Positions 4,236 through 20,920 of a stretch of DNA of 21,772 nt are shown here, piece by piece. How positions within the stretch are numbered: the stretch's first letter is position 1; every line of letters begins with the position of its first letter. The DNA is from a virus. The position numbers and the translations under genes were made by a program. The notes beneath the pieces were generated by a model. That model saw only the letters and a program-made list of their open reading frames with translations, made no database searches and had not been told where the DNA came from. The stretch is from IMG/VR virus record IMGVR_UViG_3300024268_004547; one strand, written 5' to 3'.

Positions 4236-4381
4236 TAGGATTATTTTGTTGAAATTTTTTCATTTATAAATAAGAACTTTTTTTTCGTAAATTTCATTTT
4301 ACAAAATTATATATTAACCTTCAAACAAAAGATAAATCATATTTTAATTTTTGTTAAAATATTTTTATTAAAATTTAATGA

Positions 4382-6649
4382 TTGATGGATTTTTTGTGGG
4401 AGGTGAGAAAGATAAGAGATTCATTGAAAATATCCCTGTTGATGTTAATATTTGTGATTTCATTAACGTCCGTTTCAGCTCATGATGATAATGTCACTGA
4501 CACGATTCTGGATTTGTCCAATGAAACTGCTAGTGTTTCATCATTGGACACTGTGGATGATGCCAGCACTAATCAGGCAGTAGGCGAAGCGGATGTAGCT
4601 GACTTGACAATCAATATCACTAATGATAATGTTGATGATTATTTTGTAAGGGGAGTGCTTAAGTCCACTTACTCTGATGCTAAACTGTTCATATCTGAGG
4701 ATATGGAGGATCTTGGCATTTTGACCGTTAGGGCTAAGAATGTCACTATCTACGGTAATAATCATACATTGAAAAATACTGTTTTCAGCATTGAGGCTGA
4801 TGATGTCACATTAAACAATCTGGTATTGAATGTGACTGAATCCTTTGAGGATAATGATTATGCGGCAGTCCTGTTATGGCATTGCGACAATGCAGGTATT
4901 TACAATACTGTTATCAACTACGTCGCTCCATTGAACGCTGATGCCTATGGTATTTATAGTGAAGGCACCAAGTACAAGAATAACCGTAATGTCCGGATAG
5001 CCAACAGCACTGTAAACTTAATCGGCAATAACCCAAGCAGTGGTCGTGTTTACGGTATTAAGTTGGAACACTCTCCTAATACTTTATTTGAAAACAACAC
5101 AGTCAATACTCAGTTGCCTTTGCGTACGGTTGCATTTCTGGACACTACTGCTAATTTGGATTCTGAATTCTGTCTGGCAGTGGGAATCAGCAACTGTGAT
5201 GACCTGTCATTCAACAATAACATTATCAATACCAATGTAAATGTCCGGCCCGAGTGCGCTTATCCTACATTGGACAGCGTATTCATCTGTGATTCAAATA
5301 ATTGCAATGTTACCAATAATGTGATTACTTTGATTGATGATATTACCTATAAGGATGAGGCCAATTATCTTTATGCATTGGATGTTTATCGTGCAAAGGA
5401 TTTGCTTGTTGATGGCAATAGCATTCGTCTGGGTACCAATGGTGGTGCTTATGCTGCGGGAACCGCTTATCCGATACAGTTGACAGGTCCTGCAAGCGGG
5501 GTAATGATTAGATACAATAACTTGTACTCCAAGAGCAACGGTCCAAATATTGGTATTTATTCACATAACTTCAATGGTGACAACTACATTACAATTCTCA
5601 ACAACTACATTAATGTGACTGGTCGTGCGGGCAATCACAGCTGGGCTTTGGTTGCGGGTATTGAGTCACAGGACAACAATGACATCATAATGAACAACAT
5701 AATAGAAATCCACAATACTGGAGCTGTGAAATGGGATGATAACCTTTACGGCATTTCATATTCTCAGAAAACCGACAGTACACACACATACAGGGTGGTG
5801 AACAATACTGTTATCAGTGACGGTTATTACGTTTCACATATGCTGGATGCCGACAACACTACAGTGACCAACAATACGCTAGTAAGAACTGACAAGTATG
5901 CCGATACCAATTATGATCCCTTCAAGCGTGGTGACAATATTGGTGCTGATACTGATAAGGATAAGAATAATGATTTTTCAGGAAACCGTGTAATCACAAT
6001 ATTCGAGTATGGTCTCGAGCATCAAAGCAATGAGGTTGATGGCGGTGATCCGTTTGTATATGTTCCGCCTGAAAACGTCAACGGCAGAACCAATGTCATT
6101 AACGGCAGTGGAATTGTTCCTCAAAGGCCGGGATTTCCTGGTGGCAATCCTTTGCTTCCGGGAGGCAATGGCGGAGGTTCAATAAACACCGGCGGCAATA
6201 CTCCTAGTGGATTCAATAGTCCGGATAGTGCTGATGGTGACAATGGTTTTAAAGGTTTTCCTGACCTGAGCGGGGACAATGGTGAAAGCCTGTCACGCAA
6301 AACAAATCAGGGAACAGATACAAAAACCGTGAACTCATTCAACAATGATGGGACAGCTAGCAACTCATATAATAATGATGTGGTTGCAAGTGAAAACTCA
6401 ACATCAAGTGAAACTCCAAGCGTCAACGGCATGACCTCATCTGGCAGGTCATCAAGTTCCGCTTCATCTGCCGGTGCCGGTGGAAGCAGTGGTGCATCAC
6501 AGGATGTGAGTAAGGCTTATGAGATTACCAAGAATATTGTGGAAAACGGTCCGGATGATATTTTGAAGTTCATTGCACTTGCAGTGGTGTGTGAGATCTT
6601 GTTGGTTGTCGGATACAGGAGAAAGGAAAGTGAAGACATTACAGATTAA
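4382..6649 (+). CDS. Membrane-anchored adhesin-like protein with right-handed parallel beta-helix repeats
   Basis: Signal peptide (LKISLLMLIFVISLTSVSA), Asn-rich beta-helix repeats (NNIIN, TNNVIT, NNYINV), a Gly/Ser/Pro-rich linker and a C-terminal TM helix with RRK tail. The true start is uncertain (4412 ATA or 4424 TTG after an SD at 4399-4406). Confidence 0.8.
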   Translation: MMDFLWEVRKIRDSLKISLLMLIFVISLTSVSAHDDNVTDTILDLSNETASVSSLDTVDDASTNQAVGEADVADLTINITNDNVDDYFVRGVLKSTYSDAKLFISEDMEDLGILTVRAKNVTIYGNNHTLKNTVFSIEADDVTLNNLVLNVTESFEDNDYAAVLLWHCDNAGIYNTVINYVAPLNADAYGIYSEGTKYKNNRNVRIANSTVNLIGNNPSSGRVYGIKLEHSPNTLFENNTVNTQLPLRTVAFLDTTANLDSEFCLAVGISNCDDLSFNNNIINTNVNVRPECAYPTLDSVFICDSNNCNVTNNVITLIDDITYKDEANYLYALDVYRAKDLLVDGNSIRLGTNGGAYAAGTAYPIQLTGPASGVMIRYNNLYSKSNGPNIGIYSHNFNGDNYITILNNYINVTGRAGNHSWALVAGIESQDNNDIIMNNIIEIHNTGAVKWDDNLYGISYSQKTDSTHTYRVVNNTVISDGYYVSHMLDADNTTVTNNTLVRTDKYADTNYDPFKRGDNIGADTDKDKNNDFSGNRVITIFEYGLEHQSNEVDGGDPFVYVPPENVNGRTNVINGSGIVPQRPGFPGGNPLLPGGNGGGSINTGGNTPSGFNSPDSADGDNGFKGFPDLSGDNGESLSRKTNQGTDTKTVNSFNNDGTASNSYNNDVVASENSTSSETPSVNGMTSSGRSSSSASSAGAGGSSGASQDVSKAYEITKNIVENGPDDILKFIALAVVCEILLVVGYRRKESEDITD

Positions 6650-6680
6650 CTGCATCTTTGGCAGTTGATCTCTTTTTTTA
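6648..6680 (+). terminator. Hairpin plus T-tract after ALP2
   Basis: AACTGC (6648-6653) pairs with GCAGTT (6661-6666), followed by ctcttttttta. Confidence 0.6.
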
Positions 6681-6914
6681 TATTTTTCAAAAGCATCGAA
6701 TAATTGATTTTACGATTAATCAAATAATTACTTTTATTATTAACTGCTATTTTTATCGACTGTTTATTTTATTATTTCATATGTATTTCTCATAATTTCT
6801 ATTTTCACAAGTGTCAGTATATAGGAAATTAATGAGGTTGGTTAAAAAATAAAAAATTTGGATGGCGGGCAGATGATTTTTTTGTCCTTATATAATCAAA
6901 AGTTTATTATATGG

Positions 6915-6947
6915 TTTATATAAATAATATAATAAAAAATATAATAT
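6915..6947 (+). promoter_or_regulatory. Conserved promoter-like motif, copy 1 (upstream of portal)
   Basis: TTTATATAAAT-aata-TAATAAAA. Bases 6927-6947 (ATATAATAAAAAATATAATAT) are identical to 14233-14253. Confidence 0.55.
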
Positions 6948-6962
6948 AATGGATGATTGTTT

Positions 6963-8264
6963 ATGGGAATAACCTCTTTTATAAAAACCAGATTACTCAA
7001 CAACCGTGTGGAACAGTACAACACCAGGCGCAGCTATTGGGGCGAAAATGAAAGGCAACCTAGGACTGATGGGATAAACACCGGCCTTGACCTTGTCGAT
7101 GCGCTGCCGCCGGTAATTAACAAGACAATAGCCAATGCTCGTTATGCTGTTAAGCTTGACGGTTACACTTCAGGTGTTTTGAAAAACAGAATCGATAAGG
7201 CAAATGTAAATATTGTATTGGTGGATAAGGAAAACAAATTATCTGCTGAACAGAAACTGACTTTGATTTTATGGGCAAGAAAAATTGACATATCACAAGT
7301 TGCTAAAAACATCCTGCAGGCTGGAATGGTCGATGGGGAAGGATTAATTAAACCTGTAGAGAGATGGGATAAATCCATCGGCAAATATATCAAACCTATA
7401 TTTTTGGAAATCGGGGCTCATGGCTATGGATTGAAAAAGGAATTCAACGATGACAATGAAGTCGAGCTTTACTTGCATGAGATGCCTAAAGATATTGTTA
7501 ACGGATCTCCGGAGGAGTTCGATAATTATGTCAGCGTTGAGGAGGGAACATTGACTGTAAAGTACGAACCTGAAGAGGTAATTAACTTCATGTACAATGA
7601 AATCTACTGTGAAGCTCAATCTATTATCCTTAATTGTCTTGATGATATATACCACAAGTGCAATTTGGAGCGTAATCAAGTTGAGCGTATTAATAAGGAC
7701 AATATCATTGAAGTAAAACCATCACTTGATTCAAACGGTCAACCTATTGTTACAGAACTTTCATCTACTGCAAAAGAAAATCTTTATGCAGATTACGGAA
7801 CAACAGCTGATTCAAACGTAGCTATTGTACCGCCAGGAATTGAAAGTAAAATACTCGGGGGTAACAACTACCAGTCAGACTATACAAGACAGACCGAAAT
7901 CTTCAGGAATAATATTTTAAGAACTTTTGTAACACCGCAGTCACAGGCAGGTAATGAGAAATCTAATCAGAACGTGGCGGAGTACATTAACGATTCAGCT
8001 ATTACAGGTTTCATTGTTAATGTGGCCAATGACCAGAAATGGGTGTTAAAGTATTGCAATCAATTATTGAATATGCAGTTGGAGTTAATGGGCATCAGCG
8101 AAACTTTAGATGTTTACTTTAGCTATTCAAGAGATGACGTTTTAAGATATATTATGGAATTGTCTTCTGAAGGGGATGAGATATATAAAAACTATCTCAG
8201 TAACTTTGAAGAGGAACAACCTGTCGGTGAAAGGATTCTGACTGATAGTGGTGTTGAAATATAA
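6963..8264 (+). CDS. Phage portal protein (HK97/Mu gp29-like)
   Basis: About 433 aa with portal-like ordered motifs: DGYTSGVLKNR, ILQAGMVDGEG, YEPEEVINFMYN...QSII, VAIVPPGIESKILGG, FRNNILRTFVTP...GNEKSNQNVAE. Recognised by pattern, not by HMM search. Confidence 0.75.
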   Translation: MGITSFIKTRLLNNRVEQYNTRRSYWGENERQPRTDGINTGLDLVDALPPVINKTIANARYAVKLDGYTSGVLKNRIDKANVNIVLVDKENKLSAEQKLTLILWARKIDISQVAKNILQAGMVDGEGLIKPVERWDKSIGKYIKPIFLEIGAHGYGLKKEFNDDNEVELYLHEMPKDIVNGSPEEFDNYVSVEEGTLTVKYEPEEVINFMYNEIYCEAQSIILNCLDDIYHKCNLERNQVERINKDNIIEVKPSLDSNGQPIVTELSSTAKENLYADYGTTADSNVAIVPPGIESKILGGNNYQSDYTRQTEIFRNNILRTFVTPQSQAGNEKSNQNVAEYINDSAITGFIVNVANDQKWVLKYCNQLLNMQLELMGISETLDVYFSYSRDDVLRYIMELSSEGDEIYKNYLSNFEEEQPVGERILTDSGVEI

Positions 8265-8321
8265 TGTGAAATATTTATTTCATAAGTATCTTTAAATATT
8301 ATTTTATCTAATATATTATAC

Positions 8322-8834
8322 ATGAAAATTTCCAATATAGATAACTTAAAAATTGTTAAAACTAACTTAGAACAGTTAAAAACAATTGATTTTGATTGTG
8401 GTGACGAAGATTTAAATGAATTCCTATTAAAAGATTCCGTTGAAAATATTAAGAATAATCTTTGCACAATATTTTTATGTATCTATGAGGAGGATGTTGT
8501 TGGATTTTTTTCATTATCTGCAGATTCAATTAAAATTAATGAAAAACTTAAAATCCAATATCCTCAATATCCTGCAATTAAAATTGGTAGGTTGGCGGTG
8601 TCTAAGGAATTTCAAAACCAGCATATTGGAAGTTTAATGATAGATTGGGTTGTTGGGTTTTGCAGAAATTTAGGAAATGAAATTGGTATTAGATTTGTTT
8701 CAGTTGATGCATATAATAACACCAAAACTGTAAACTTCTATAATCACAATCAATTTGTAGAATTGGAATCTGTAAATAAGAAAAATAGAAGGAATATTCC
8801 TATGTATAGGGATATCTGTGAAAAATTAAACTAG
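8322..8834 (+). CDS. GNAT acetyltransferase of the AtaT/TacT toxin type
   Basis: FDCGDEDLNEFL, GFFSLSADSI, PAIKIGRLAVSKEFQNQHIG (acetyl-CoA motif) and VDAYN...FY motifs. Confidence 0.85.
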   Translation: MKISNIDNLKIVKTNLEQLKTIDFDCGDEDLNEFLLKDSVENIKNNLCTIFLCIYEEDVVGFFSLSADSIKINEKLKIQYPQYPAIKIGRLAVSKEFQNQHIGSLMIDWVVGFCRNLGNEIGIRFVSVDAYNNTKTVNFYNHNQFVELESVNKKNRRNIPMYRDICEKLN

Positions 8835-8902
8835 CACAATATATTTAAATAAAGTGCAATATACTATTTAATATAATAGTTAAAATATGGAGGATGTAAA
8901 TC

Positions 8903-9052
8903 ATGGCAAGTAAAGTAAATGCTACACCAACATTAGATGGTATCGATGCAAAAAGATTCATTGAAAAATTAAATTCTCCGTCAACACCAAAAGAGGTAGA
9001 ATCATTAAAAAGAGCTGATGAGGTATTTAAAAAGATTAAATATATTCATTAA
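8903..9052 (+). CDS. 49-aa protein, putative antitoxin-like partner of the GNAT (not in ORF track)
   Basis: SD GGAGG at 8889-8893 and ATG at 8903. Translation: MASKVNATPTLDGIDAKRFIEKLNSPSTPKEVESLKRADEVFKKIKYIH. A T-tract follows, and a paralog lies at 21265. Confidence 0.7.
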   Translation: MASKVNATPTLDGIDAKRFIEKLNSPSTPKEVESLKRADEVFKKIKYIH

Positions 9053-9400
9053 ATTCTTTTTTTAATTGTACCTAAATTATTTTCATTTTTTATTAAAGGA
9101 TGGAGATATCATATTTACATTGTTTATTTGAAGGTAAAAACTTCATTAGAAGTTCAGCCTATATATCCTTGTCTCGACGAGGGGCGAATTGGGTGGTATG
9201 TGGGTTCTTCAATAATTCATGAAAATAATTATAATTTTCCCTATACTGTTTTTACAACTTTGTTTTTTTTATGTCTAAAAATTCATGATATTTTTTTCTG
9301 ATTCATAATTTTTAAAACATTTCTTGAAATTAAAATTAATTTGGCAACTTATTTTTTTTAATATTTTTCCTCTGCTATCACACTAAAAATATAATAAAGA

Positions 9401-9433
9401 TTTATATAAAATAAGTAATAAAATATATAATAA
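9401..9433 (+). promoter_or_regulatory. Conserved promoter-like motif, copy 2 (upstream of protease/scaffold)
   Basis: TTTATATAAAAtaagTAATAAAATATATAATAA, 31/33 identical to 14197-14229. Confidence 0.6.
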
Positions 9434-9449
9434 TTAATATAATAAAATT

Positions 9450-10415
9450 GTGATAACTATGAGACATGAACTTTTTGAAGTAGGATCATATGATTATTCC
9501 GACTTGGATAATCGCCTGACAAAACCGGTGAACTGGACTGAAGATGATCTAAAGCTAATAGCTGAAAACTATCGTGGAGGAATTCCATTAACTTCTGAAC
9601 ATGACAATATCTATGTGGGTATTGGAAATAATATTGAATACGAGGAAGGAAAGCTATTCATTGAAATTCCGGATGAACTGGATATGGACGGGAAAGGCCT
9701 ATCTCCTAAAGTTGATGTCTTATTAAAGGATAAAGGAGATTCATTTGGAATTGATACTATGAGTTTAATAGACGTTGGAGTTACTAAAAACCCTAGAAAA
9801 ATTAGATTGTTGAATTCTGAAATAACCGGAGAAACTGGTGCTGCGGGAAATCCAAATCCTGAACCTGCTCCACAGCCTCAACCCAGCAAGGAAACTAATG
9901 TGGCCACTAGTTTATTATTGGAAAAACTGCAGGGTAAAGATGCTGAAATCGGAAAGCTTCAGGAAGAGATTAATGCTCTTAAAGAAGAGTCTGAAAAATA
10001 TGAAGAAATTAAAAAAGCTATTGAAGAGAATAAGGAATTCATTGACAGTAAAGATGATATATTAAAGGAATTGTCTGAGCTTAGAAAAGCTGAAAATGAA
10101 CGCAAGATAAAAGAGTACGAAGCCAAGTACAACTTCAACTATAATGAAAACGCTCAGGATAAAGAGATAATAGATAAGCTATTGTCCGGTGACGTTGATA
10201 TGGAACTTATGGAAAAGCTTGCTGAGAGAAGAATAAAAATTGAAGCAGCTAATGACGGTTCCACTCCAGGTGGTAGAAAACCTGGAAACGATGGTGAAAC
10301 TGGCCAAACCGGATCTACTGGCGGAAGTGAAGATGAAAACGCTCCATCATTCACCACTCGTGAAGAGTACAATAAAATCTTAAAGGATATGGGATTCAAT
10401 AGAACTAGAATATAG
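9450..10415 (+). CDS. Capsid maturation protease/scaffold protein (Mu gpI-like N-terminal domain plus coiled-coil scaffold)
   Basis: WTEDDLKLIAENY, IPLTSEH, GLSPKV and LIDVGVTKNPR correspond in order to Mu-I-like motifs (IDxEH, LSP, VALTNxP). A Pro-rich linker, an acidic coiled coil and a short C-terminal helix follow. The start may be ATG 9459. Confidence 0.7.
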   Translation: MITMRHELFEVGSYDYSDLDNRLTKPVNWTEDDLKLIAENYRGGIPLTSEHDNIYVGIGNNIEYEEGKLFIEIPDELDMDGKGLSPKVDVLLKDKGDSFGIDTMSLIDVGVTKNPRKIRLLNSEITGETGAAGNPNPEPAPQPQPSKETNVATSLLLEKLQGKDAEIGKLQEEINALKEESEKYEEIKKAIEENKEFIDSKDDILKELSELRKAENERKIKEYEAKYNFNYNENAQDKEIIDKLLSGDVDMELMEKLAERRIKIEAANDGSTPGGRKPGNDGETGQTGSTGGSEDENAPSFTTREEYNKILKDMGFNRTRI

Positions 10416-10452
10416 CTATGATGGTGTTTTATACTTTTTACACCGGAGCTAT
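10412..10452 (+). terminator. Hairpin after the protease gene
   Basis: ATAGCT/AGCTAT (10412-10417, 10447-10452) encloses GGTGT/ACACC. Confidence 0.35.
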
Positions 10453-10482
10453 AAATCTTCGTTAAACGCTCGTTATTGAATT

Positions 10483-10740
10483 AGATATAGGGAAGTGTTT
10501 GTGGTGTTTCACTTCCTATAATATCTTGCATTGAAACCCTCAATGCCTAATTAAGGAGGGCAAGCTCTCCTTTAATTGCCCACGAATGCCAATGCAAAAT
10601 AAAATCACGTTTACAAAACTTAACCTCGAACCGACCGCTAGGGTCGGTTCCTCACTATAATATATGCTCACCAATTCTTTACACCAGGCCTCCACACACG
10701 CCTCCCTTGCGGTCGGCGTGGTTGCGGCCTGGCGAATTGG
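10483..10740. other. Non-coding cluster of five inverted repeats, candidate structured RNA or cruciform DNA element
   Basis: Stems at 10483-10526, 10528-10546, 10549-10577, 10628-10650 (perfect 9 bp) and a nested GC-rich stem-loop at 10671-10740. Confidence 0.55.
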
Positions 10741-10938
10741 TTCGCTTAAAACATGAGTTGAATATGGTGGAATTAACTACAAATTATTACAGTTAATTGA
10801 ATTTACTTATGAACAATAATGTTTATCTTGCATTAATGGTAAAATCAAGTTGATTTATAATTTCTGCATATATAAAAGGAACATTAACATTATTAAGCAT
10901 TAAAAAAAGATATTAATGTTAGAGGTGTGAATTTTAAA

Positions 10939-11025
10939 ATGTTTTGCAAATGGTATTATCATGGCTATTGTGTGGTATTTGGCTGTCCATGTGACTTGAT
11001 GGGAATGTGCGGAATCAAGGAATGA
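10939..11025 (+). CDS. 28-aa Cys-rich peptide, possible metal-binding microprotein (not in ORF track)
   Basis: SD GAGGTG at 10922-10927. Translation: MFCKWYYHGYCVVFGCPCDLMGMCGIKE (5 Cys, 1 His). Confidence 0.45.
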   Translation: MFCKWYYHGYCVVFGCPCDLMGMCGIKE

Positions 11026-11149
11026 AGAAAAAGATATCATTTAATGGAATGATGACAATATATGATTCCATCACATAAATATTTATTAATGAGGTAAGGT
11101 TTATAAGAATCCGTCGATGGGCAAACTCATCATGGTCAAAGAATAGTTA

Positions 11150-11206
11150 AAATTAATTTTTTAGATAATTAAACTAATGGTTACTGGTGTGACTGTTATT
11201 TTAATT
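11150..11206 (+). repeat. Imperfect direct repeat, copy A (left of MNT-HEPN)
   Basis: AAATTAATTTTTTagATAATTAAACTAAtGGTTA-ctggtgt-GACTGTTATTTTaATT, matching 12090-12147. Confidence 0.75.
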
Positions 11207-11306
11207 ACCTGTTTTTTTCACAAAGTTGTAGTTTCAAAGGTTTTATAATTGATGAGGTTAATATTAATTATTATAAAATTGACTGTTAATCTTTTGGTGA
11301 TGTGTA

Positions 11307-11612
11307 ATGTATAATAGAATCGAAATTGCTCATGAGTTTGCTGATGCTATTGATTCGGATGAAATTATTAGAATGGTTTTGTTTGGTTCTGTTGCACGTG
11401 GGGATGATGGTGATGAATCTGACATTGATATTTTGATTGTTGTTCATCATGATAACAGGGAGTTGGAATCAATTATTGATAATCTTGTTGTTGATTTTAT
11501 TCTTGAAAAGGAAGAGGTTATTTCACCTCATGTCATGACTGAAGATCATTTCAATAAGACAAAAGATTATAGTTTCCTTAAAACCGTTATGGCTGAAGGT
11601 GTTCCCATATGA
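11307..11612 (+). CDS. Minimal nucleotidyltransferase (MNT) antitoxin
   Basis: LFGSVARGDDGDESDIDILIV fits GS-X10-DXD. It overlaps the downstream HEPN gene by ATGA. Confidence 0.9.
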   Translation: MYNRIEIAHEFADAIDSDEIIRMVLFGSVARGDDGDESDIDILIVVHHDNRELESIIDNLVVDFILEKEEVISPHVMTEDHFNKTKDYSFLKTVMAEGVPI

Positions 11613-11983
11613 ATGTTGAAGAGGTTAATGGTGTTATGGATTTGGCAGTTGAAGAGTTGAGCATGGCACAAATATTATATGATGCTGGAAAGTATAGGGG
11701 TTCTATTACTCATTCATATTATGCAATGTTTGATGCTGCTAAAGCATTATTGCTCACTCATGATTTTATCAGCAAAAAACATGACACTATATTGGCTCAG
11801 TTCAGCAAGGATTTTGTTCGTGATGGGGATTTTAGTCAAGAGGTTTATACTTATTATTCTAATGCTAAAAAACTTAGAAGAAAATCCAGTTATGATTTTT
11901 CAGTAAATTTTGATAAACAGGAAGCTTTTGATTGTTTGATTCAGGCTGAAGAATTCATAATTGAAGCTAAAAAATTTTTATAA
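11609..11983 (+). CDS. HEPN domain protein (PF05168-like class)
   Basis: HSYYAMFDAAKALL, SKKHDTILAQF and LRRKSSYD motifs; coupled to the MNT. Confidence 0.85.
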   Translation: MNVEEVNGVMDLAVEELSMAQILYDAGKYRGSITHSYYAMFDAAKALLLTHDFISKKHDTILAQFSKDFVRDGDFSQEVYTYYSNAKKLRRKSSYDFSVNFDKQEAFDCLIQAEEFIIEAKKFL

Positions 11984-12089
11984 TAATTTATCTTTTTTTT
12001 TCAAAAGTATTTTTTTGCTCTTTTTAAAGCTTTGATTTTTCTCATCTCTGGGGAGGTGTTCGTATTCTTCGTAAAATTCATGATGGTTT

Positions 12090-12147
12090 AAATTAATTTT
12101 TTCTATAATTAAACTAACGGTTATGGGGAGGGACTGTTATTTTTATT
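12090..12147 (+). repeat. Imperfect direct repeat, copy B (right of MNT-HEPN)
   Basis: AAATTAATTTTTTctATAATTAAACTAAcGGTTA-tggggagg-GACTGTTATTTTtATT. Confidence 0.75.
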
Positions 12148-12221
12148 TATTTTTATATGCTAATTTTTTCAAAGGATGATACGACCTTTTGATATGCCAT
12201 ATTATTTTTATTATTATATTA

Positions 12222-12247
12222 TTTATATAAAAAAGATAATAAAATAT
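12222..12247 (+). promoter_or_regulatory. Conserved promoter-like motif, copy 3
   Basis: TTTATATAAAAaagaTAATAAAATAT. ATG 12253 follows at a spacing compatible with a leaderless transcript. Confidence 0.55.
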
Positions 12248-12252
12248 TATTT

Positions 12253-13437
12253 ATGACATTGATGAAAGAATTGCAGATTAACATTGCAATGAGTAATTAC
12301 CAAAAAAGAAGCGGCAGCTATTCATCCAACTATGATTATATATTCTTAGATAACTTGTTGGATAGCTCTCATGCCAGTTCATTCAGAAGTGATTTGAAAA
12401 ATCTGAAGATTAAAACAAAAGATGGAACCAACTGTCCTGTCTTGTATATTCCAGAATATGGATCTCAAGGTGCAGCTATTGTTGTTAGAGTTCCTGTTGG
12501 AAAAATTTCTGAAACTACAAAGCTGATCCTTGAAGTTCATGACACCACATTCTCAAGCACATTAACATCAGGTAATGATCTGTTAATGTTTGATGCAAAC
12601 TCTGATACATTCTCACAATATTTCATGAACTACTCAGGTTTAAGTATCAATAATGACTCAACAGATAATGGAAAATTTCTACGTGCCAGATTTGTTCCAA
12701 GCCTTGAAGGCAGCTCACCAACATCATTATTTACAACATTCGCTTCAGGACAGTCTTTAAGTAACTGTCGTGTTACTGTAGCCAGATTCAAAAGAATAAA
12801 AGGCAATGTTACAGTTAATGATAATGCAACATATCATGGAACAACAAGCGGAAGCATCATGGTGCAGTCCGACTTTAATCTCACAGCATATCGGGAAGAT
12901 ATAAAGTCAACAAGGCTGAACTTTGGTGGAAGCAAGTCATATTGCATGTTTGACGGAGCAGAAACATTAGTAATGGCCAGTTCATTTGATGCATATTCAT
13001 CAGGCAGTGATGATGAGGGAGATTGGAAACAATACCATTTACATGGCCGTGTAGGTAAGGGAACATCAAGTTCATCAGATTATCTTGAAGGATTTAACCG
13101 TAACAATCCAACTAAAATATATCAAAAGAATTACGCGGAAGTTGAAATCTCACCAGAATGGTACGCCACAACTGATTTTGACCAATACAATTATGTTGAC
13201 CTGAAATGGCTATTGATATTCCCATCACCCATATTTGCAGCTAACGGAATTCCTGAGATTACAGTTACTGAAAAACAAACTAAAACTGGAATCAGATTAT
13301 TCAAAGGAGAACATGAATATCCCAAAGCATATAAAGGAAACAAGCTATTGTGGGATGCTGATGATGAGTCAATGGAAAATACTGGACTATACATTCCAGA
13401 TAAAATTAAAAACAAAGATTGGGATTGGGTGTTCTAA
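12253..13437 (+). CDS. DUF2341-like domain protein, probable virion-surface protein
   Basis: N-terminal FRSDLKNLKIKTKDGTNCPVLYIPE...AAIVVRVP...TTKLILEV resembles DUF2341. It has a beta-rich middle and a C-terminal LFKGEHEYPKAYKGNKLLW motif. Confidence 0.5.
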   Translation: MTLMKELQINIAMSNYQKRSGSYSSNYDYIFLDNLLDSSHASSFRSDLKNLKIKTKDGTNCPVLYIPEYGSQGAAIVVRVPVGKISETTKLILEVHDTTFSSTLTSGNDLLMFDANSDTFSQYFMNYSGLSINNDSTDNGKFLRARFVPSLEGSSPTSLFTTFASGQSLSNCRVTVARFKRIKGNVTVNDNATYHGTTSGSIMVQSDFNLTAYREDIKSTRLNFGGSKSYCMFDGAETLVMASSFDAYSSGSDDEGDWKQYHLHGRVGKGTSSSSDYLEGFNRNNPTKIYQKNYAEVEISPEWYATTDFDQYNYVDLKWLLIFPSPIFAANGIPEITVTEKQTKTGIRLFKGEHEYPKAYKGNKLLWDADDESMENTGLYIPDKIKNKDWDWVF

Positions 13438-14205
13438 ATGATTGAAGAATATAGAGAAACAATTGGCCATGGGCGTGGATATCCGACAGGTTTAAGCCAT
13501 GAAGAAAAGATGGATGTAATAGCCTGCCTGCTGGACGAGGGTGAGAGAACATATGTTAATGAGGAATATACTGCCTGGATTTCATCCGACCAGTGCAGAG
13601 TAGGTGAAATGGTAACACTGGATGAATCATCAACAATGAATCATACAATAGTTAGAAAAGCCAAGGAAGGAGAACTGGCATTTGGCTATTTATTAGGAAA
13701 GGTTCAGGTTCGCTCTTCAGGACATACTTTAGTTACTGTAGCCGTATTGGGTGATGTATTCAGATTAAAACTTAAAAAGCCAAACGTAAGGATTCATCCA
13801 AATGACAGAATCTACATTGACAAAAACGGCTTGTGCAATCCAAGTGAAGGCCATGACCTAAGGCTGCTGTCAATTGTCGGTCTTGATGAAACAGAACATG
13901 CAGAATACATCCGAGTATACAGGCAGATGTCTGAAATCGAAATGTATCCTGAATCCCAGAACTGCATTGATCTTGCAGACTGCAGCTTCGAGCAGGATGA
14001 AATAACTCATGTGGTAAACATGATCGTACCGACAGAGTCCAACATCATGGCACAGGCCAATTATATCAAGGACAAGGACGGAGTCACTTATTGCGAACTT
14101 CCGGACGTGGCTATTGTCAATAACGTCAGATTCGTATGGGAGGACAACAAACTCTACATGGAATGGGACGGTTGCGATGATAATGAAAAAGTATATTTTA
14201 TATAA
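13438..14205 (+). CDS. Capsid decoration/cement-like protein with a C-terminal extension; paralog of 15746
   Basis: CLLDEGERT...VGEMVTL...AFGYLL...VTVAVLGDVFRLKL...PNDRIYIDKNG aligns by eye with the N-terminal domain of 15746..16375. The pattern resembles DUF2190-like cement proteins. Confidence 0.5.
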   Translation: MIEEYRETIGHGRGYPTGLSHEEKMDVIACLLDEGERTYVNEEYTAWISSDQCRVGEMVTLDESSTMNHTIVRKAKEGELAFGYLLGKVQVRSSGHTLVTVAVLGDVFRLKLKKPNVRIHPNDRIYIDKNGLCNPSEGHDLRLLSIVGLDETEHAEYIRVYRQMSEIEMYPESQNCIDLADCSFEQDEITHVVNMIVPTESNIMAQANYIKDKDGVTYCELPDVAIVNNVRFVWEDNKLYMEWDGCDDNEKVYFI

Positions 14206-14253
14206 AAGAAATAATAAAATATATAATAAATTATATAATAAAAAATATAATAT
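14197..14253 (+). promoter_or_regulatory. Conserved promoter-like motif, copy 4 (overlaps the stop codon of 13438..14205)
   Basis: TTTATATAAAAgaaaTAATAAAATATATAATAA followed by a 21-bp block identical to 6927-6947. Confidence 0.6.
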
Positions 14254-14271
14254 CATTAGTGAGGTTTGATT

Positions 14272-14463
14272 ATGACTATAAGGAAGCTTGTCGGAACATT
14301 GGAAAACAAAGGCCCTTACATTGACCAGGCCACAGGCCACTGGTTCTACTGGAACGGCACCAAATATGTAGACTCTGGTTATCCTTATGCAGTTAAACCC
14401 ATCATTGAGTTTAAAATCGAAGACGGCATATTGTACTATTCAATTACTTGGGAGGCACAATGA
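14272..14463 (+). CDS. Small fibre-associated-like protein
   Basis: SD GAGGT at 14261 and ATG at 14272. GPYIDQATGHWFYWNGTKYVDSG resembles the YVWNGxxWxNxG segment of the neighbouring collagen-like proteins. Confidence 0.55.
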   Translation: MTIRKLVGTLENKGPYIDQATGHWFYWNGTKYVDSGYPYAVKPIIEFKIEDGILYYSITWEAQ

Positions 14464-14627
14464 AATACATCAAATACTTTGAAACCCTTGAAGAATACGA
14501 AAATTGGATAAACGTAGAGGAAAACGCGGAAGAAGTCTACAGGACTGAAGAAAAGATTTGTGTTGACGGCATAATACTCAGCCACACAAACAAATCATAT
14601 GAAGAGGTGGAAAACATTGCTTTATGA
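14460..14627 (+). CDS. 55-aa acidic hypothetical protein (not in ORF track)
   Basis: SD GGAGG at 14451-14455 and an ATGA overlap with the previous stop. Translation: MKYIKYFETLEEYENWINVEENAEEVYRTEEKICVDGIILSHTNKSYEEVENIAL. It fills the operon gap. Confidence 0.65.
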   Translation: MKYIKYFETLEEYENWINVEENAEEVYRTEEKICVDGIILSHTNKSYEEVENIAL

Positions 14628-14868
14628 ATGGTTAGAGCGAAACAGAAAAGACATTGACATATTAACTTCATTTTTAGTCACCATTATACCAATCATCATG
14701 TTATACTCAGAATCTTTAGGAATCACAGAAAATACCATTCCCTACTGCATACTAATGATTATTTTAGGCGTAGCCAGTCATTATGCAAGTAGGATAAGAG
14801 GCGATGGGGATGTTGAATACGCAAAGAAGAAAGCTAAAAGAGTTTTGGGATACCCTCAAAAGGAATAG
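14617..14868 (+). CDS. Small two-TM membrane protein, holin-like
   Basis: Two hydrophobic segments (ILTSFLVTIIPIIMLY; IPYCILMIILGVASHY) and a basic C-terminus. SD GAGGTG at 14604 favours TTG 14617 over ATG 14599. Confidence 0.5.
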   Translation: MLYEWLERNRKDIDILTSFLVTIIPIIMLYSESLGITENTIPYCILMIILGVASHYASRIRGDGDVEYAKKKAKRVLGYPQKE

Positions 14869-14874
14869 GCTTTT

Positions 14875-15159
14875 ATGGAGAATATTGTTAAGTTGATTTC
14901 TATGAAAGATTTAAAAAAGAAAATCATCATCTGTAACTTTACCAAAACAATTTCAAGTGCTGTTTTAACAGCCGTAGCTATCAACATCATAATGGATAAT
15001 GCAACAAAGTATGCTTTAATGGAAGGCATAATACCATTTGCTTTAGCCATCATCATTGTACTATTAATTGACTTGTATCAGTATAGATGTGACAAAGAGG
15101 ATAAGACTAATTTGAATGAACTTGAGGAGAGAATCCAGAAACTGGAGGGTGAGGAATGA
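14875..15159 (+). CDS. Small two-TM membrane protein with C-terminal coiled coil, holin-like
   Basis: ISSAVLTAVAINII and GIIPFALAIIIVLLIDLY segments, followed by LNELEERIQKLE. Confidence 0.5.
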   Translation: MENIVKLISMKDLKKKIIICNFTKTISSAVLTAVAINIIMDNATKYALMEGIIPFALAIIIVLLIDLYQYRCDKEDKTNLNELEERIQKLEGEE

Positions 15160-15749
15160 AGATACTGATTGCAGTTCCAACCTTTGAGACCATCAAACCG
15201 GAATGCTTCAAAAGCATATACGGACTCAAAAGACCTGACAGTTGTACTCTCTACTTTGATTATGTTTCAGGCTATGACTGTGCCAAGGCCAGAAATCAAA
15301 TAGCCAAAAACGCAATGGCCGGAAACTATGACTATGTACTGATGGTGGACTCAGACATACAGCTTCCTCAAGACACTTTAATCAAGCTATTGGAATGCGA
15401 GTCAGATATTGCGCTTGGATGGTACTACAGAAAAAGAACAAAGACAGATCAGACAGTGATATTCACTTTCGGCAAAAACTTCGATGATCAAAACTGCATT
15501 ACTGGCCAGACCATGATTCATGAAGTGCCAAGGCCAATTGAAATCAAAGGTGGAGGACTTGGAATTGCACTGATTAAAGTTGATATCTTTAAAAAGCTAT
15601 CATATCCATATTTCAAGTTCGTAACCTACGAAGATGATTCAGTATTGTCAGAGGATTTATACTTCTGCAATCTGGCCAGTGAAAACGGCTGCAATATCAA
15701 ATGCAATCCTTCAGTTAAAGGAAACCATATATTCGATGTGATAATGTGA
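15156..15749 (+). CDS. GT-A fold (GT2-like) glycosyltransferase
   Basis: KILIAVPT, CAKARNQI, LMVDSDIQLP (DxD), GGGLGIALIK and SEDLYFC motifs. Confidence 0.85.
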   Translation: MKILIAVPTFETIKPECFKSIYGLKRPDSCTLYFDYVSGYDCAKARNQIAKNAMAGNYDYVLMVDSDIQLPQDTLIKLLECESDIALGWYYRKRTKTDQTVIFTFGKNFDDQNCITGQTMIHEVPRPIEIKGGGLGIALIKVDIFKKLSYPYFKFVTYEDDSVLSEDLYFCNLASENGCNIKCNPSVKGNHIFDVIM

Positions 15750-16375
15750 ATGATACAATTGTTTTATTGGAAGAAAGAAAGGAGATTACTACCTTCTTAT
15801 TGGATGATGGAGTTAAAACATTAGTCGATAATGTAATAACAACATCTGGTAGTAGTCTTGGATACGAGTATTCCAATAAGTGCATGGTTGACGACATACT
15901 CTGTATTTCAGACAAATCAGCAATAGGAAAGGAGTCACTCAGAAAATACACTGGTGACGACACAGAAGTTCCTGTCGGCGTCCTTGTCAATGAACCGGTT
16001 GTAATGACAAACGGCGAGAGAAAAGGAAGTGTACTACTACTCGGAGGACTTTACAGATTGAAACTGGCTTCAGGTCAAATTGTTAAAGCTGGTGACAGAA
16101 TCAAACTGACACCAAATGGAGCTATTGTTGACAATGCCGGGGAGTTCCTTGCTTTTCATCCTGTTGCAGACTCTGATGAATACAATTATGTCAATTGTTT
16201 CCAAGTAAGTCTTGGAGGTAAAGGAGAGAAAGGAGACACCGGAGATACAGGTGCTGCGACTGTAATCCTCGGGTCTTATGATACTTTCGAAGAACTAATT
16301 GCAGCACATCCAACTGCCAACGAAGGAGATGCCTTCCTAGTTGCAGGTGAACTATTCGTTTGGCATAATGATTAA
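15746..16375 (+). CDS. Capsid-decoration-like domain fused to a short collagen stretch and a half fibre module (putative head-fibre anchor)
   Basis: The N-domain is paralogous to 13438, followed by [13 protein letters not shown]. The protein ends in GSYDTFEELIAAHP...GDAFLVAGELFVWHND. Confidence 0.6.
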   Translation: MNDTIVLLEERKEITTFLLDDGVKTLVDNVITTSGSSLGYEYSNKCMVDDILCISDKSAIGKESLRKYTGDDTEVPVGVLVNEPVVMTNGERKGSVLLLGGLYRLKLASGQIVKAGDRIKLTPNGAIVDNAGEFLAFHPVADSDEYNYVNCFQVSLGGKGEKGDTGDTGAATVILGSYDTFEELIAAHPTANEGDAFLVAGELFVWHND

Positions 16376-16405
16376 TTTAAAATAAATAAATAGAGGTGTT
16401 TATAT

Positions 16406-17278
<873 letters not shown>

Positions 17279-17296
17279 AATCCATTAAAATCCCTC

Positions 17297-17337
17297 AAAA
17301 GGAAGTGCTGGCTTAATAGTTAGCGCTTCCTTTTTTT
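17297..17337 (+). terminator. Intrinsic-type hairpin plus T-tract inside the fibre gene cluster
   Basis: AAAAGGAAGTGCT...AGCGCTTCCTTTT with a G-T-containing stem, followed by T7. Confidence 0.7.
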
Positions 17338-17365
17338 ATAAACAAATAATAAAGGTGATAAAAAT

Positions 17366-17689
17366 ATGGCATGGATAAATGTAGGAAACCTTAAAGGCGA
17401 AACTGGTGCAAGCGGCCGTAGTGTCAATGTATATAAGGACACATCCCATGGCCAAATAATTTTCGTTGGTGAAGATACAGAGGCGATAATTTATCTCAGC
17501 GAACTCAAAGGAGATACTGGTGCAACTGGTCCTGCAGGTCCGGTTAATATGACTTCAACATTGGATACTTCAGACACTACAAATGCAGTAACCAACAGTG
17601 CAATAGCTACAGAAATCGAAAGCATCCAAACAGCTATTGGAAACATTACCTCTGCTCAGCAAAGCAACCTGACATTACTTGGGAGTTGA
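17366..17689 (+). CDS. Short fibre/adaptor protein with collagen remnants
   Basis: It starts MAWINVGNLKGETG, contains [12 protein letters not shown], and has a C-terminal NAVTNSAIATEIESIQTAIGNI helical segment. Confidence 0.65.
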   Translation: MAWINVGNLKGETGASGRSVNVYKDTSHGQIIFVGEDTEAIIYLSELKGDTGATGPAGPVNMTSTLDTSDTTNAVTNSAIATEIESIQTAIGNITSAQQSNLTLLGS

Positions 17690-18528
17690 TTAATATGTCA
17701 TATACAGCTCCAGACCTTTCCGATATTCTATCTAATGAGCAGGAACTGAACACCAGATTAACAAGTTTAAAAACTTTACTTGAAAATCAACTGGATGATT
17801 TAAGCACAAGCCATTCCAGCAATGATTCAATTTTAAAGTTAATAAGTATGATAAGCAATCCTCCAGTCTGGAAGATTGAGAGAAGTTCAACATATGATTC
17901 TGGCCAATTGGGAGATCGTGTTGCAGTAACCGGATGTGATGTATATTCATGGAACAGATACAATCCAACAACCTATGAAGATAACGATTACTGGTATCTT
18001 CAATCTTTAGCAAAGAGTTCAAATGCAACAGCATGGGGATTATTCAACACAGGCACAATCAATCCAACAGATAGTTTTGATTTGGTAGTATATGGAAGAG
18101 CAATGGCTAACTTTAACAATAATGCTTTTTCAGGCGTAGGTTTTAGCTATGGTACTCCAACAGCAAATTCTCCATTCTCAGGTTTTTATATTGGAATTAC
18201 ATTAGATTCAGGAACATATCATCCGGCATATGCAATATTCAATAACAGTACAACACCAACAATAACAAAAATGGATTATGGAACATATGATTCCACAAAC
18301 CAAAAATTCAGATTACACATGATACATGATGAGGATTATTTGGCAGTATACTGGTTTAAGGATAAGGAATTCCTATGGAATGATTGGATTAACATATCAG
18401 ATTTACCATCCGGATATTCCAGTGCAGATTTGAAGATGAGTTATGTAAGCCATGGAACAGGCCTTGGAAGAAATGCATATGTTCCTAGACTGGAGTTGGC
18501 CTCACCATGCAGATTAAACATATTATAA
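17686..18528 (+). CDS. Putative receptor-binding/fibre-tip protein (N-terminal coiled coil, beta-sandwich C-terminus)
   Basis: The helical N-terminus (LNTRLTSLKTLLENQL) is followed by an aromatic-rich beta region. The start is probably ATG 17695. Confidence 0.45.
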   Translation: MINMSYTAPDLSDILSNEQELNTRLTSLKTLLENQLDDLSTSHSSNDSILKLISMISNPPVWKIERSSTYDSGQLGDRVAVTGCDVYSWNRYNPTTYEDNDYWYLQSLAKSSNATAWGLFNTGTINPTDSFDLVVYGRAMANFNNNAFSGVGFSYGTPTANSPFSGFYIGITLDSGTYHPAYAIFNNSTTPTITKMDYGTYDSTNQKFRLHMIHDEDYLAVYWFKDKEFLWNDWINISDLPSGYSSADLKMSYVSHGTGLGRNAYVPRLELASPCRLNIL

Positions 18529-18543
18529 TAGGGGTGATTAAAA

Positions 18544-19626
18544 TTGTCAATTGCAAGTGATGTAATCAATACAAATACAAAATTAACAGCCGTAAGGAAT
18601 GCATTGAGGGAATTATTAACAGAGCACGGAATAGTCTATTATAGCGATGATGATGTTTTCACATTAGCACGAAGAGTATGGTTTTTAGTTCATCCAACTA
18701 ATGGAGCACCTGGAGGCTCATACACTGAGGCGGCTGCAGTCGGCCAACCAGTTAATGTTAGTGTTTACAAGGATTGTGATGATGATGCAGAATTGCCTGA
18801 TGGTGCGGTTGCGGATTTTATCATAAGCATCAACGGTGAAGAGAAAATCCATATCAAATCATTATTCGATAACGGCACTGCTCGGTGTTCATATGTTCCT
18901 GAAAATGCTGGAGATACATTATCAATCAAAGCATTAGTTAATGATTATGTAGGAGTGCATTTTGAAAAGGAAGTATTGGCATTCAGATATAAAGACGAAT
19001 ATACTGTGAGTTCTGATTCATATACGCTAGTTAAATATCCAAGTACTGCAGACATTACCGTTAGTGAAGTGGCTGAATTCAACAGTTCTTATGATTATGT
19101 TAATGCGATTGAAATTTCAAAAACCTACGGTGCAGCACAGGCCGCTTATTTGATACCAACCAGTTTAATTGAAGGTGTGGATTTATCTGAAAAGGGAATT
19201 CACTTCTCATCTTTTGTAAGTCCAATGTATTCATCATCAAGCGGTTGGGCTTCAGGAATTTGCCTTCTGAATTCAAAAACATTAACACACTACCGTGACA
19301 ACAAGATACTGGAACTTGGAGCATATCCCGGTAAAAAGGGATTGCAATATTCAGGAACCGATCATACAATAAATACGATAAATACAACAACCGGACAGTT
19401 AAGCATTAATGGTGCCTATAAATTTAATTTATGGTATGATGGAGCATATGTTAAAGCTACAATCACAGATTACTGGGGAACAACAACATATTATAGCTAT
19501 GAAACATCCTCACTTCCAGATGCAATAGCTAATATGGACACAGTATTTCCAGCATTCATGATTTATGATTACGGTGGAAAAATAAGATTCAGAGAAACAG
19601 TTATAGAACCATGGAGCAAGGATTAA
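18544..19626 (+). CDS. Putative receptor-binding/fibre-tip protein
   Basis: TTG start after SD GGGGTGA. N-terminal SIASDV...AVRNALRELLTEHGI helix of the kind seen in phage fibre proteins, then an Ig-like segment and a lectin-like beta-rich C-terminus. Confidence 0.45.
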   Translation: MSIASDVINTNTKLTAVRNALRELLTEHGIVYYSDDDVFTLARRVWFLVHPTNGAPGGSYTEAAAVGQPVNVSVYKDCDDDAELPDGAVADFIISINGEEKIHIKSLFDNGTARCSYVPENAGDTLSIKALVNDYVGVHFEKEVLAFRYKDEYTVSSDSYTLVKYPSTADITVSEVAEFNSSYDYVNAIEISKTYGAAQAAYLIPTSLIEGVDLSEKGIHFSSFVSPMYSSSSGWASGICLLNSKTLTHYRDNKILELGAYPGKKGLQYSGTDHTINTINTTTGQLSINGAYKFNLWYDGAYVKATITDYWGTTTYYSYETSSLPDAIANMDTVFPAFMIYDYGGKIRFRETVIEPWSKD

Positions 19627-19627
19627 G

Positions 19628-20563
19628 ATGGCTGAAAAAGAATGGATAGAAATCGGACCTGTGAGAGGAGATACAGGACCTAAAGGAGATACTGGAGACA
19701 TTGGAATTGGAACTGTAATAAAAGGACATTATGATAATTACTCAGAGTTCATTGCAGTTCACCCTTCAGGTAGTTTAGGTGATGCATATATAGTAGATGG
19801 CAGCTATTACTACTGGAACGAAAACGGCTGGGCAAATGCAGGCTCTGTAAAAGGTGATACTGGAGCAACAGGTGAGAAAGGACAACAAGGACCTAAAGGA
19901 GATACTGGAGATACAGGAGCTACTGGCGATACTGGACCGGCCGGGGCAAAGGGGGACACTGGAGCTACTGGCACTGGCATCACTATTAAAGGTTCGTATA
20001 ATACTTATGAGGAATTAATAGCTGAACATCCAACTGGTAATGATGGAGATAGCTATTTAGTAAACGGATCTCTTTATGTCTGGAATGGAGCTGCTTGGGA
20101 AAACGTAGGAAACATAAAAGGAGAAAAAGGAGATACTGGAGCTACAGGTGCAACTGGAGCAACCGGAAGTAAAGGTGATAAAGGAGACAAAGGCGATACT
20201 GGTGCAACAGGTCAGGGCAGTGATGAGGAGGCCGGATGGAAGTTACCAGTTGATAAAATACAAACCACAACAACATTGCCGACAGGTGTCAGTAAAGGTT
20301 ATCGTGTAGCTATTGTAACCAGTTCTGTCATGGCCATTAAAGAGTATAACGGCAGTTCATGGGATACTGAAACACTTGACCAGTATTCAGTGATACCTTT
20401 AAAGCATTCTGGAAGTATACAGATGTATTTGGCAAAATCAACAGGGCCAGTTTATATGGGTGTTGAATATGGTGTCTTTGGTAAGTTTAGATTTATGACT
20501 CAGGCAGCATATGATGCGTTAGGTAGCTATGATGAGGATACAATTTATTTTGTGAGAAGCTAA
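19628..20563 (+). CDS. Collagen-like fibre protein with two complete repeat modules
   Basis: Gly-X-Y tracts and two full I.GSY...HP.G..GD.Y.V.G..YxWNxxxWxNxGxxKG modules. The C-terminus is MTQAAYDALGSYDEDTIYFVRS. Confidence 0.9.
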   Translation: MAEKEWIEIGPVRGDTGPKGDTGDIGIGTVIKGHYDNYSEFIAVHPSGSLGDAYIVDGSYYYWNENGWANAGSVKGDTGATGEKGQQGPKGDTGDTGATGDTGPAGAKGDTGATGTGITIKGSYNTYEELIAEHPTGNDGDSYLVNGSLYVWNGAAWENVGNIKGEKGDTGATGATGATGSKGDKGDKGDTGATGQGSDEEAGWKLPVDKIQTTTTLPTGVSKGYRVAIVTSSVMAIKEYNGSSWDTETLDQYSVIPLKHSGSIQMYLAKSTGPVYMGVEYGVFGKFRFMTQAAYDALGSYDEDTIYFVRS

Positions 20564-20626: not shown

Positions 20627-20920
20627 ATGATTTACACTATTGAAGAAATTAAGCAAAAGGCTATTCCAATCGCACAGGAGTATGGTGTTGACAGCATGAG
20701 TCTGTTTGGATCATATGCCCGAGGCGAAGCTAGTGAGGATAGTGATTTGGATTTTTTCATTGATCGTGGAGATATAAAAGGTTTATTGGACTATATTGGA
20801 TTTGTCCAAGACCTGGAGGAAATTTTCAAGTGTCATGTTGATGTTGTATCAACAGGAATTGAAGATAAAAACTTTTTGGCAATAATTAAAAAAGACGGAG
20901 TTCTTATCTATGAAAAATAA
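20627..20920 (+). CDS. MNT nucleotidyltransferase antitoxin (MntA-like)
   Basis: LFGSYARGEASEDSDLDF (GS-X10-DXD) and HVDVVS motifs; overlaps the HEPN gene. Confidence 0.9.
   Translation: MIYTIEEIKQKAIPIAQEYGVDSMSLFGSYARGEASEDSDLDFFIDRGDIKGLLDYIGFVQDLEEIFKCHVDVVSTGIEDKNFLAIIKKDGVLIYEK

Follow-up and report, generated by a model that had tools for sequence, protein, structure and literature searches.

The stretch of DNA considered here, 21,772 nucleotides from the IMG/VR virus record IMGVR_UViG_3300024268_004547 (hereafter the window, meaning the whole of this stretch), raises the question of what kind of element has a virion gene cluster that opens with a portal gene, with no terminase gene 5′ of the portal and no capsid gene 3′ of the protease. 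A preliminary description, made from the letters alone, had presented it as a cluster without capsid, terminase or integrase, abutting host adhesin genes and studded with toxin–antitoxin (TA) modules. Our analysis indicates that the window very probably covers the central 21.8 kb of a temperate tailed virus of ∼45 kb that is complete and competent for excision, is integrated in the chromosome of a rumen Methanobrevibacter and belongs to the lineage of Caudoviricetes sp. vir323. This reading draws on gene content, attachment (att) sites, empty sites, an attP junction and purifying selection, all as read from DNA sequence, and such a virus would be expected to produce particles.

Coordinates are window positions, and positions past 21772 are those of a twin contig, given as window-equivalent. 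The window was low in G+C (25–45%) and coding almost wholly on the + strand. Its twin, found by exact-protein look-up, was the JGI contig Ga0216340_10000875 (111.5 kb), 100% identical to the window over 1–18264 and ∼99.95% over the remainder; a search of IMG/VR returned one related contig only. To the left, the sequence was extended with contig ERZ27247467 k141_825773 (L113), which matched the twin contig without a difference (100% identity) along 16,005 nt. Capsid genes begin 0.6 kb beyond the window end, and the following features were found there on the twin contig:

Between the window end and the first capsid gene: preneck-like gene.
Window-equivalent 22371–23309: major capsid protein 1 (MCP1), of a pair of 312 and 308 aa, 97% identical to its vir323 counterpart.
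Window-equivalent 23324–24250: MCP2, 99% identical to its vir323 counterpart, PF25209.
After MCP2: 132-aa gene.
Window-equivalent 25107–25916: pseudomurein lysin with Peptidase_C71 and PMBR domains (PeiW-type endopeptidase).
Between lysin and TerL: TerS-like gene, 269 aa, with a weak match to Phage_Mu_Gp27.
Window-equivalent 27468–28877: large terminase subunit (TerL), 469 aa, with the Pfam domains Terminase_3, Terminase_6N and Terminase_6C, 93% identical to vir323 TerL.
Window-equivalent 29571–35086: leftward early/replication module.

The two capsid proteins correspond to vir323 proteins annotated as "major head protein, HK97-like fold", and the 308-aa protein matched PF25209 (Phage_capsid_4) with 29.8 bits at a Pfam cut-off of 27. 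The element appears to encode HK97-fold major capsid proteins of its own, and the three terminase domains point to a large terminase of its own as well. Two adjacent paralogous MCP genes (L074 4904–6783, equivalent to 22371–24250) are unusual for a small tailed virus; the paralogues were 54–56% identical to each other, and both were conserved at 93–99% family-wide. One protein of the early module (564 aa) weakly matched PF27228, a domain of plasmid-replication type.

The integrase lies at the other end. From the left, L113 carries a host Peptidase_M50 gene, a flavoprotein gene, a tyrosine integrase gene, a late-promoter copy and with it an N-terminal portal fragment of 72 aa, a gene for a 1838-aa adhesin-like protein (ALP) on the minus strand, a 795-aa ALP, ALP1, ALP2 and the portal, the integrase being 15.5 kb upstream of the portal and past the ALP array. 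The integrase (379 aa) matched PF00589 with 26.5 bits, 0.6 below the cut-off, and was 59% identical over its full length to the integrase of Methanobrevibacter genome G006 (PF00589, 38.8 bits), suggesting that the element encodes a site-specific recombinase. In G006, G003 and G078 a tyrosine integrase stands right behind the early module, where the window's contig has a 135-bp repeat, and this led initially to a reading without integrase, of a provirus grounded by deletion beside a host cassette array. That candidate was rejected because of the integrase upstream, and the right-end repeat is the virus's own attR arm plus core. Judged from the identical contigs, the absence of capsid, terminase and integrase is an artefact of where the window stops; the earlier statement holds inside the window, and all three lie just outside.

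At both ends of the element, ∼45 kb apart, stands a 12-nt direct repeat, GTTTTATACGAA. Its left copy is 98 nt upstream of the integrase gene, and its right copy coincides with the crossover point mapped by comparison with other genomes. Three other species (G016, G077, and G057) have an empty attB, in which the host-left flank, a single core and the host-right flank follow one another uninterrupted, and homology to the host-left flank ends at the last base of the core in >20 genomes. No tRNA was found at the element ends. Scanning the metagenome collection for the predicted attP junction yielded one contig, OCTX012245422.1, which runs from the right end of the element (99.3%, 3,171 nt) through the core into the left end (99.5%, 209 nt), implying that the element excises or circularises. 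This contig would represent the excised or circular form, a tandem double lysogen being the sole alternative reading. We propose that the integrase inserts the element at the 12-nt core, downstream of the host flavoprotein gene, and that, on the circular genome, attP has the terminase end on one side and the portal end on the other, so that in the integrated form the portal heads the late block and the terminase closes it.

Several candidate att repeats were discarded. Those between the portal promoter and the DNA directly behind TerL or behind the early module were chance AT-rich matches only, as were those obtained at the portal-side junction of G006 before the empty site was used. A 14-nt match within an ALP gene to the attR of G078 was also attributed to chance, since it lies in an intact open reading frame (ORF) and half of it is on the viral side.

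Units of ∼135 bp made up of the attR arm and core were seen in several contigs (L074 17715–17850 and 20530–20665; four copies in L088; L086; L075). They are directly repeated 1.3–4.2 kb apart and bracket small cassettes, containing a 265-aa ORF with an ATPase_2/STAND-like gene, or Cupin, MarR, FMN_red and adh_short genes. The arrangement resembles a hot spot of tandem integration, or else an array of remnants or small elements with the same integrase family.

The second late promoter and the 72-aa portal fragment directly after the integrase (L113 3530–3899, ∼8.3 kb upstream of the window) point to an earlier exchange. The first 65 aa of the fragment were ∼85% identical to the real portal, and it is best read as the scar of a swap of integration modules, in which a G078-type body would have joined a G058-type module of attP, integrase, promoter and portal. 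A species-representative metagenome-assembled genome (MAG), G101, was 100% identical to the provirus flanks (C13 149542–153041, C13 161539–161665, and C27 47816–49980) and contained the integrase end and portal fragment only; the central provirus contigs, absent from it, were probably lost by binning, and provirus surveys on MAGs would for this reason under-count the vir323-like family.

The odd gene order has a precedent in vir323, which reportedly stems from the 2023 compendium of methanogen viruses by Medvedeva et al. The vir323 record (GenBank BK063679.1 / NC_133304.1; 34,179 bp, circular, host Methanobacteriales) has the portal at 143, the protease at 1508, fibres to 13.4 kb, the preneck-like gene and the two major head protein genes at 17.4–19.8 kb, a pseudomurein endopeptidase at 24.5 kb and TerL at 30.9–32.3 kb, closing the circle 1.9 kb before the portal. 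This gene map shows that the order is a property of the family, already visible in the 2023 GenBank record. The window was collinear with vir323 block by block from 6899 to the window end, and the alignment breaks at a GNAT insert (8279–9389), an MNT–HEPN insert (∼10756–12199), a diverged fibre segment (17764–19270) and the final MNT–HepT pair. Every late gene of vir323 had a full-length counterpart in the element, with 62–99% protein identity except for two fibres at 38–39%. Collinearity at such identity places the element in the vir323-like lineage, and the permuted provirus order listed in the preliminary description as one possible explanation proved correct, being typical of the family. 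The late genes and their promoter are arranged in the window as follows:

6897–6950, + strand: AT-rich late-promoter-like motif with TTTATATA box.
6957–8264, + strand: portal protein, 435 aa, with a probable ATG start at 6963.
9450–10415, + strand: prohead protease with a coiled-coil scaffold-like C-terminal part, 321 aa, a layout like that of Mu gpI.
10628–10755: conserved GC-richer non-coding stretch after the protease gene.
12253–14205, + strand: two conserved virion genes, for proteins of 394 and 255 aa that match vir323 gp05 and gp06 at 78 and 87% identity.
14266–15749, + strand: small ORFs, two with membrane-like segments, and a glycosyltransferase.
15746–20563, + strand: six tail/fibre genes with collagen-like repeats.
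21453–21734, − strand: 93-aa ORF, the last gene in the window.

DNA homology within the family starts abruptly at 6895–6903, at the AT-rich motif containing TTTATATA, and further copies of the motif were found at ∼9396, ∼12217 and ∼14192, ahead of the protease and of the genes at 12253 and 14266. The late genes may form several operons, each behind one shared AT-rich promoter-like motif, with the gaps between operons serving as insertion points for the GNAT gene and two MNT–HEPN pairs here, and for restriction-modification (R-M) systems in sister strains. From the left, the integrated element would then consist of attL, the tyrosine integrase, the 72-aa portal-fragment scar, four adhesin-like cargo genes and the late genes (portal, protease/scaffold, virion and fibre genes, preneck-like gene, two HK97 MCPs, lysin, TerS-like gene, and TerL), followed by the leftward early/replication module and attR.

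The ORFs of the cluster are intact, as previously described. The portal ORF itself matched no family in Pfam or PHROG; it was 95% identical to the annotated portal of vir323 (BK063679.1). Only 81 relatives were found in a search of 1.84 billion representatives, and several distant full-length homologues among them matched Portal_Mu, Phage_portal or Portal_T4. An AlphaFold (AF2) model built on that alignment had a predicted local distance difference test score (pLDDT) of 70 and a predicted template modelling score (pTM) of 0.65, and a fold search of the PDB returned solely phage portals (164 matches at E ≤ 1e-3, best ∼1e-8), including those of lambda, G20c, HK97, T7, and HFTV1. A sequence-profile search of the PDB with the portal alignment returned nothing; the fold search alone succeeded. 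The ORF at 6957–8264 is a portal, the identity with vir323, the remote homologues and the fold match bearing out its first assignment.

For the protease, the evidence is an 87% identical vir323 protein annotated as "prohead protease", and a language-model (ESM-atlas) likeness of residues 1–135 to Mu-like_Pro (score 0.94). The ORF itself matched no Pfam or PHROG family, and a homologue search found close relatives only, none with Pfam domains. The protease/scaffold identity is proposed on the two observations, the likeness to Mu-like_Pro being taken as a lead. The GC-richer stretch after the gene is without an ORF and is conserved in vir323 and numerous related loci; an Rfam search of the window, this stretch included, returned no family.

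The first of the two virion genes (12253–13437) had been called decoration-like, for which no support was found; its sole lead is an atlas match to DUF2341/Laminin_G_3, and it is possibly a ConA-like/DUF2341 appendage protein. The glycosyltransferase (15156–15749) matched phrog_1574 at 2.4e-21. Two small ORFs (89 and 94 aa; 14599–15159) in the middle of the virion block have hydrophobic membrane-like segments and are kept in vir323. Their products may be holin-like, or may take part in assembly at the membrane. The fibre assignment of 15746–20563 was borne out by PHROG tail-fibre families (down to 2e-40) and by PF24243 (Phage_tail_C). Identity to the vir323 fibres was 87–90% at the start and fell to the low values given above in the middle two genes, which are the probable receptor-binding part.

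The virus carries a large block of adhesin-like genes, of which three reach into the window:

3–389, + strand: C-terminal end of the 795-aa ALP (PQQ/Chlam_PMP repeats), a gene that begins ∼2 kb upstream of the window.
519–4199, + strand: ALP1, 1226 aa, with signal peptide and Big_3_5 Ig-like domains (Pfam 2.9e-31).
4382–6649, + strand: ALP2, 755 aa, with signal peptide and C-terminal membrane anchor.

These had been taken for host adhesin genes. All four ALP genes sit between attL/integrase and the portal, that is, within the att sites, in DNA that is inserted relative to the empty sites, which makes them provirus cargo and not host genes. The exact ALP2 protein adjoined the portal in 24 of the 24 contigs read. 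G078, the closest species-representative genome (portal 98% identical in amino acids), has the same four-gene array before its portal, at 66–82% nucleotide identity and unbroken across the ALP2–portal junction. The G078 provirus occupies another locus, has a different core, ATTATTAGTCAA, and its integrase is at the opposite end; empty sites for this type of provirus were found in G026, G086, and G092. The presence of one array in two differently att-bounded proviruses indicates that the array moved with the virus. In G003 and G086, too, ALP2-like genes are present, there on the downstream side of the portal. An enrichment of Ig-like domains among gut archaeal viruses has been reported (PMC12134362). 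Tentatively, and with slightly less than even confidence, we suggest that the virus carries this ∼15-kb four-ALP array, which makes up roughly a third of its genome, from one Methanobrevibacter species and one chromosomal site to another, and that lysogeny re-equips the cell surface. The ALPs would then presumably be expressed in lysogens, and lysogeny would change which rumen partners or substrates the methanogen sticks to.

The three modules reported as TA type are the following:

8322–9052, + strand: GNAT acetyltransferase (170 aa; 8322–8834) and a downstream 49-aa ORF, an accessory insert.
11143–12123, + strand: MNT (11307–11612) and HEPN (11609–11983) genes, flanked by 41-nt direct repeats (family D8).
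20627–21245, + strand: second pair, MNT and HepT/DUF86 (NTP_transf_2 and HepT-like).

Two of the three could be upheld by their domains. The first pair matched NTP_transf_2 (1.3e-10) and HEPN (2.5e-15) in Pfam, and both pairs show the adjacent or overlapping MNT and HEPN genes expected of type VII (MntA–HepT) systems. The NCBIfam models scored below their 60-bit cut-offs (NF047752, 29.5 and 45.4 bits; NF047751, 27.1 bits), and the MNTs matched the PADLOC candidate family PDC-S09. A role in defence or stabilisation may be supposed. The GNAT gene and the 49-aa ORF matched no TA family in Pfam, PHROG, NCBIfam or PADLOC; the 49-aa ORF had no family at all, and the GNAT matched general acetyltransferase models only and lacks an upstream RHH/DUF1778 partner. 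It does not appear to belong to the GNAT–RHH (TacT/AtaT type) systems.

The GNAT gene and both pairs were absent from vir323, from G006 and from the matching gaps of G078, and the MNT–HEPN pairs are inserted between late operons in a strain-specific manner. In this sense the cluster is indeed studded with modules, but these are ordinary accessory genes at gaps that tolerate insertion. In sister strains whose fibre or TerL proteins are identical, the inserts found at other gaps differ: between HepT and the preneck-like gene (L076, L078, and L081), after the MCPs (L066 and L067), between lysin and the TerS-like gene (L075), and in the ALP array (L084). These include an MvaI/BcnI R-M pair, a helicase with Eco47II R-M, TIR/FRG/HNH genes and an insertion sequence (DDE_Tnp_1_6). 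Cargo turnover within the population appears to be quick.

The family is widespread. Of the 103 species genomes of the genus, 55 have the portal and 56 have TerL. A single genome gave as many as five portal matches; in all, ∼63 portal copies were intact and full length and ∼30 were fragments. For TerL, 51 copies were intact (91–96% identity). Where both were on one contig, TerL was mostly 28–49 kb downstream of the portal; a minority had the canonical order, with TerL 4–5 kb upstream. The spacing in the window's element (20.5 kb) was the most compact. Comparison of the portal with 43 other copies gave a median dN/dS of 0.033, with dS ranging from 0.8 to saturation. The copies would represent old, diverged virus lineages under strong constraint, neither decaying nor the outcome of a recent sweep.

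How firmly a complete virus can be proposed depends on how the other readings fare. A defective ("grounded") remnant, immobile and virion-less, and kept because its MNT–HEPN modules make loss costly, is close in sense to the decaying provirus stabilised by TA modules of the preliminary description. The element is indeed recombinant, as the portal-fragment scar attests; sister contigs with the same fibre gene differ to the right of it (for example, helicase and R-M genes after the MCPs in L066 and L067), truncated portal and TerL copies are numerous across the genus, and no cured strain was seen, all 24 contigs read with the exact ALP2 also having the portal. However, the late genes are all full length and, save for two fibres, retain the identity to vir323 reported above, the integrase and both att sites are intact, the attP junction of the same element is on record, portal omega is ∼0.03, and the TA pairs are missing from close relatives that are equally well conserved. 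We regard a remnant as improbable. A domesticated GTA-like system (gene transfer agent), packaging host DNA as VTA of Methanococcus voltae does, would be in keeping with structural genes strongly conserved across species (portal 89–98% in amino acids) and carried by more than half of the species of the genus. Such a system is hard to reconcile with the presence of an integrase and att sites, of a replication module and of a lysin, with as many as five copies in one genome, whose loci and att cores differ, with empty sites in related species, or with the free circular genomes on record (vir323 and the attP contig); saturated synonymous divergence also argues for virus lineages that are old and separate, and against a single locus passed on vertically. 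It is considered very improbable. For a satellite that borrows capsid or terminase from another virus, only the window taken alone, without either gene, speaks in favour, and MCPs, a TerS-like gene, TerL, a portal, a protease and a lysin of the element's own all lie within the att sites, leaving this possibility close to negligible. The GTA, satellite and decaying-remnant readings were all rejected on what the assembled sequence contains.

Capsid, terminase and integrase genes were looked for just outside the window in att-bounded DNA, where the preliminary description had said that they would mark an ordinary provirus, and all were found there. Several points weigh against a complete, excision-competent virus. 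The integrase scored slightly under the Pfam cut-off, and the attP junction could in principle stem from a tandem double lysogen. The portal fragment records past recombination, and with the element a chimera of two related viruses its function after that event is inferred. No tape-measure or recognisable tail-tube genes were identified in the element, and its ends were taken from other assemblies of the same strain and not from the window's own record. Even so, a complete temperate virus of the vir323 lineage is the reading we hold with high confidence.

The new findings are modest and concern the exact ends with the logic of the att sites, the recombinant module for integration, and a large ALP array inside a virus. 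The sequence speaks against a GTA or a capsid-less particle system at this locus; the window stops short of the capsid genes. For a virus family present in roughly half of the rumen-type Methanobrevibacter species that were searched, the ends, the att sites and the way of integration have now been defined exactly. An order with the portal first, the terminase last and the capsid after the fibres is typical of the family, and knowing it may help provirus callers that expect the canonical order. The carriage of large adhesin arrays together with defence/TA genes bears on how methane-producing archaea acquire surface and defence traits.

Among known systems, vir323 is the closest in its late module, sharing the order portal, protease, gp05/06, glycosyltransferase, fibres, preneck-like gene, MCPs, PeiW lysin, TerS-like gene and TerL, as well as the late promoter motif ahead of the portal. 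In contrast, vir323 has no recognisable integrase, ALP genes, GNAT or MNT–HEPN pairs, its early genes lie between lysin and terminase rather than after the terminase, and it has a DNA methyltransferase and a GIY-YIG homing endonuclease that are absent from the window's element. The integrated relatives in the Methanobrevibacter species representatives G078, G006, G012, G009, and G003 are close in portal (90–98% in amino acids) and TerL (91–96%), share early-module genes and have integrases of the same family (59–61% in amino acids). They differ in their att cores (ATTATTAGTCAA in G078 and G012; about ATCATCATT beside AMMECR1 in G006), in the end or orientation at which the integrase stands, and in cargo; for G006, G078, and G012, att pairs and empty sites specific to each were found. 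The attB of the ATTATTAGTCAA-type integrase lies in a multi-copy ∼350-nt repeat with hairpins that occurs in G078 (C9 ∼30590–31100), in G012 (C1 399607–400080 and 456632–456808) and in several other genomes, and the left end of the provirus at such a site consists of 137 nt followed by a copy of the right arm of the repeat.

Further afield, gut and rumen Methanobrevibacter have two other temperate tailed proviruses on record, MSTV1 in M. smithii (PMC11375127) and phi-mru in M. ruminantium (PMC2812497). By description, they resemble the element in having a tyrosine integrase, a pseudomurein endoisopeptidase and a hypervariable region with toxin–antitoxin or defence genes (PMC11375127). MSTV1 is described with a tape measure, a siphovirus layout and canonical gene order, whereas in the window's family the MCPs follow the fibres and no tape measure was seen. 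A weak and indirect likeness to the head module of phage Mu (gp27, gp28, gp29, and gpI/Z) was found in the Portal_Mu matches of remote portal homologues, in the protease, whose Mu-like_Pro-like N-domain and scaffold-like C-terminal part recall gpI/gpZ, and in the weak Phage_Mu_Gp27 match of the TerS-like protein. Unlike Mu, which moves by transposition, the element in the window would integrate by a tyrosine recombinase at specific att sites.

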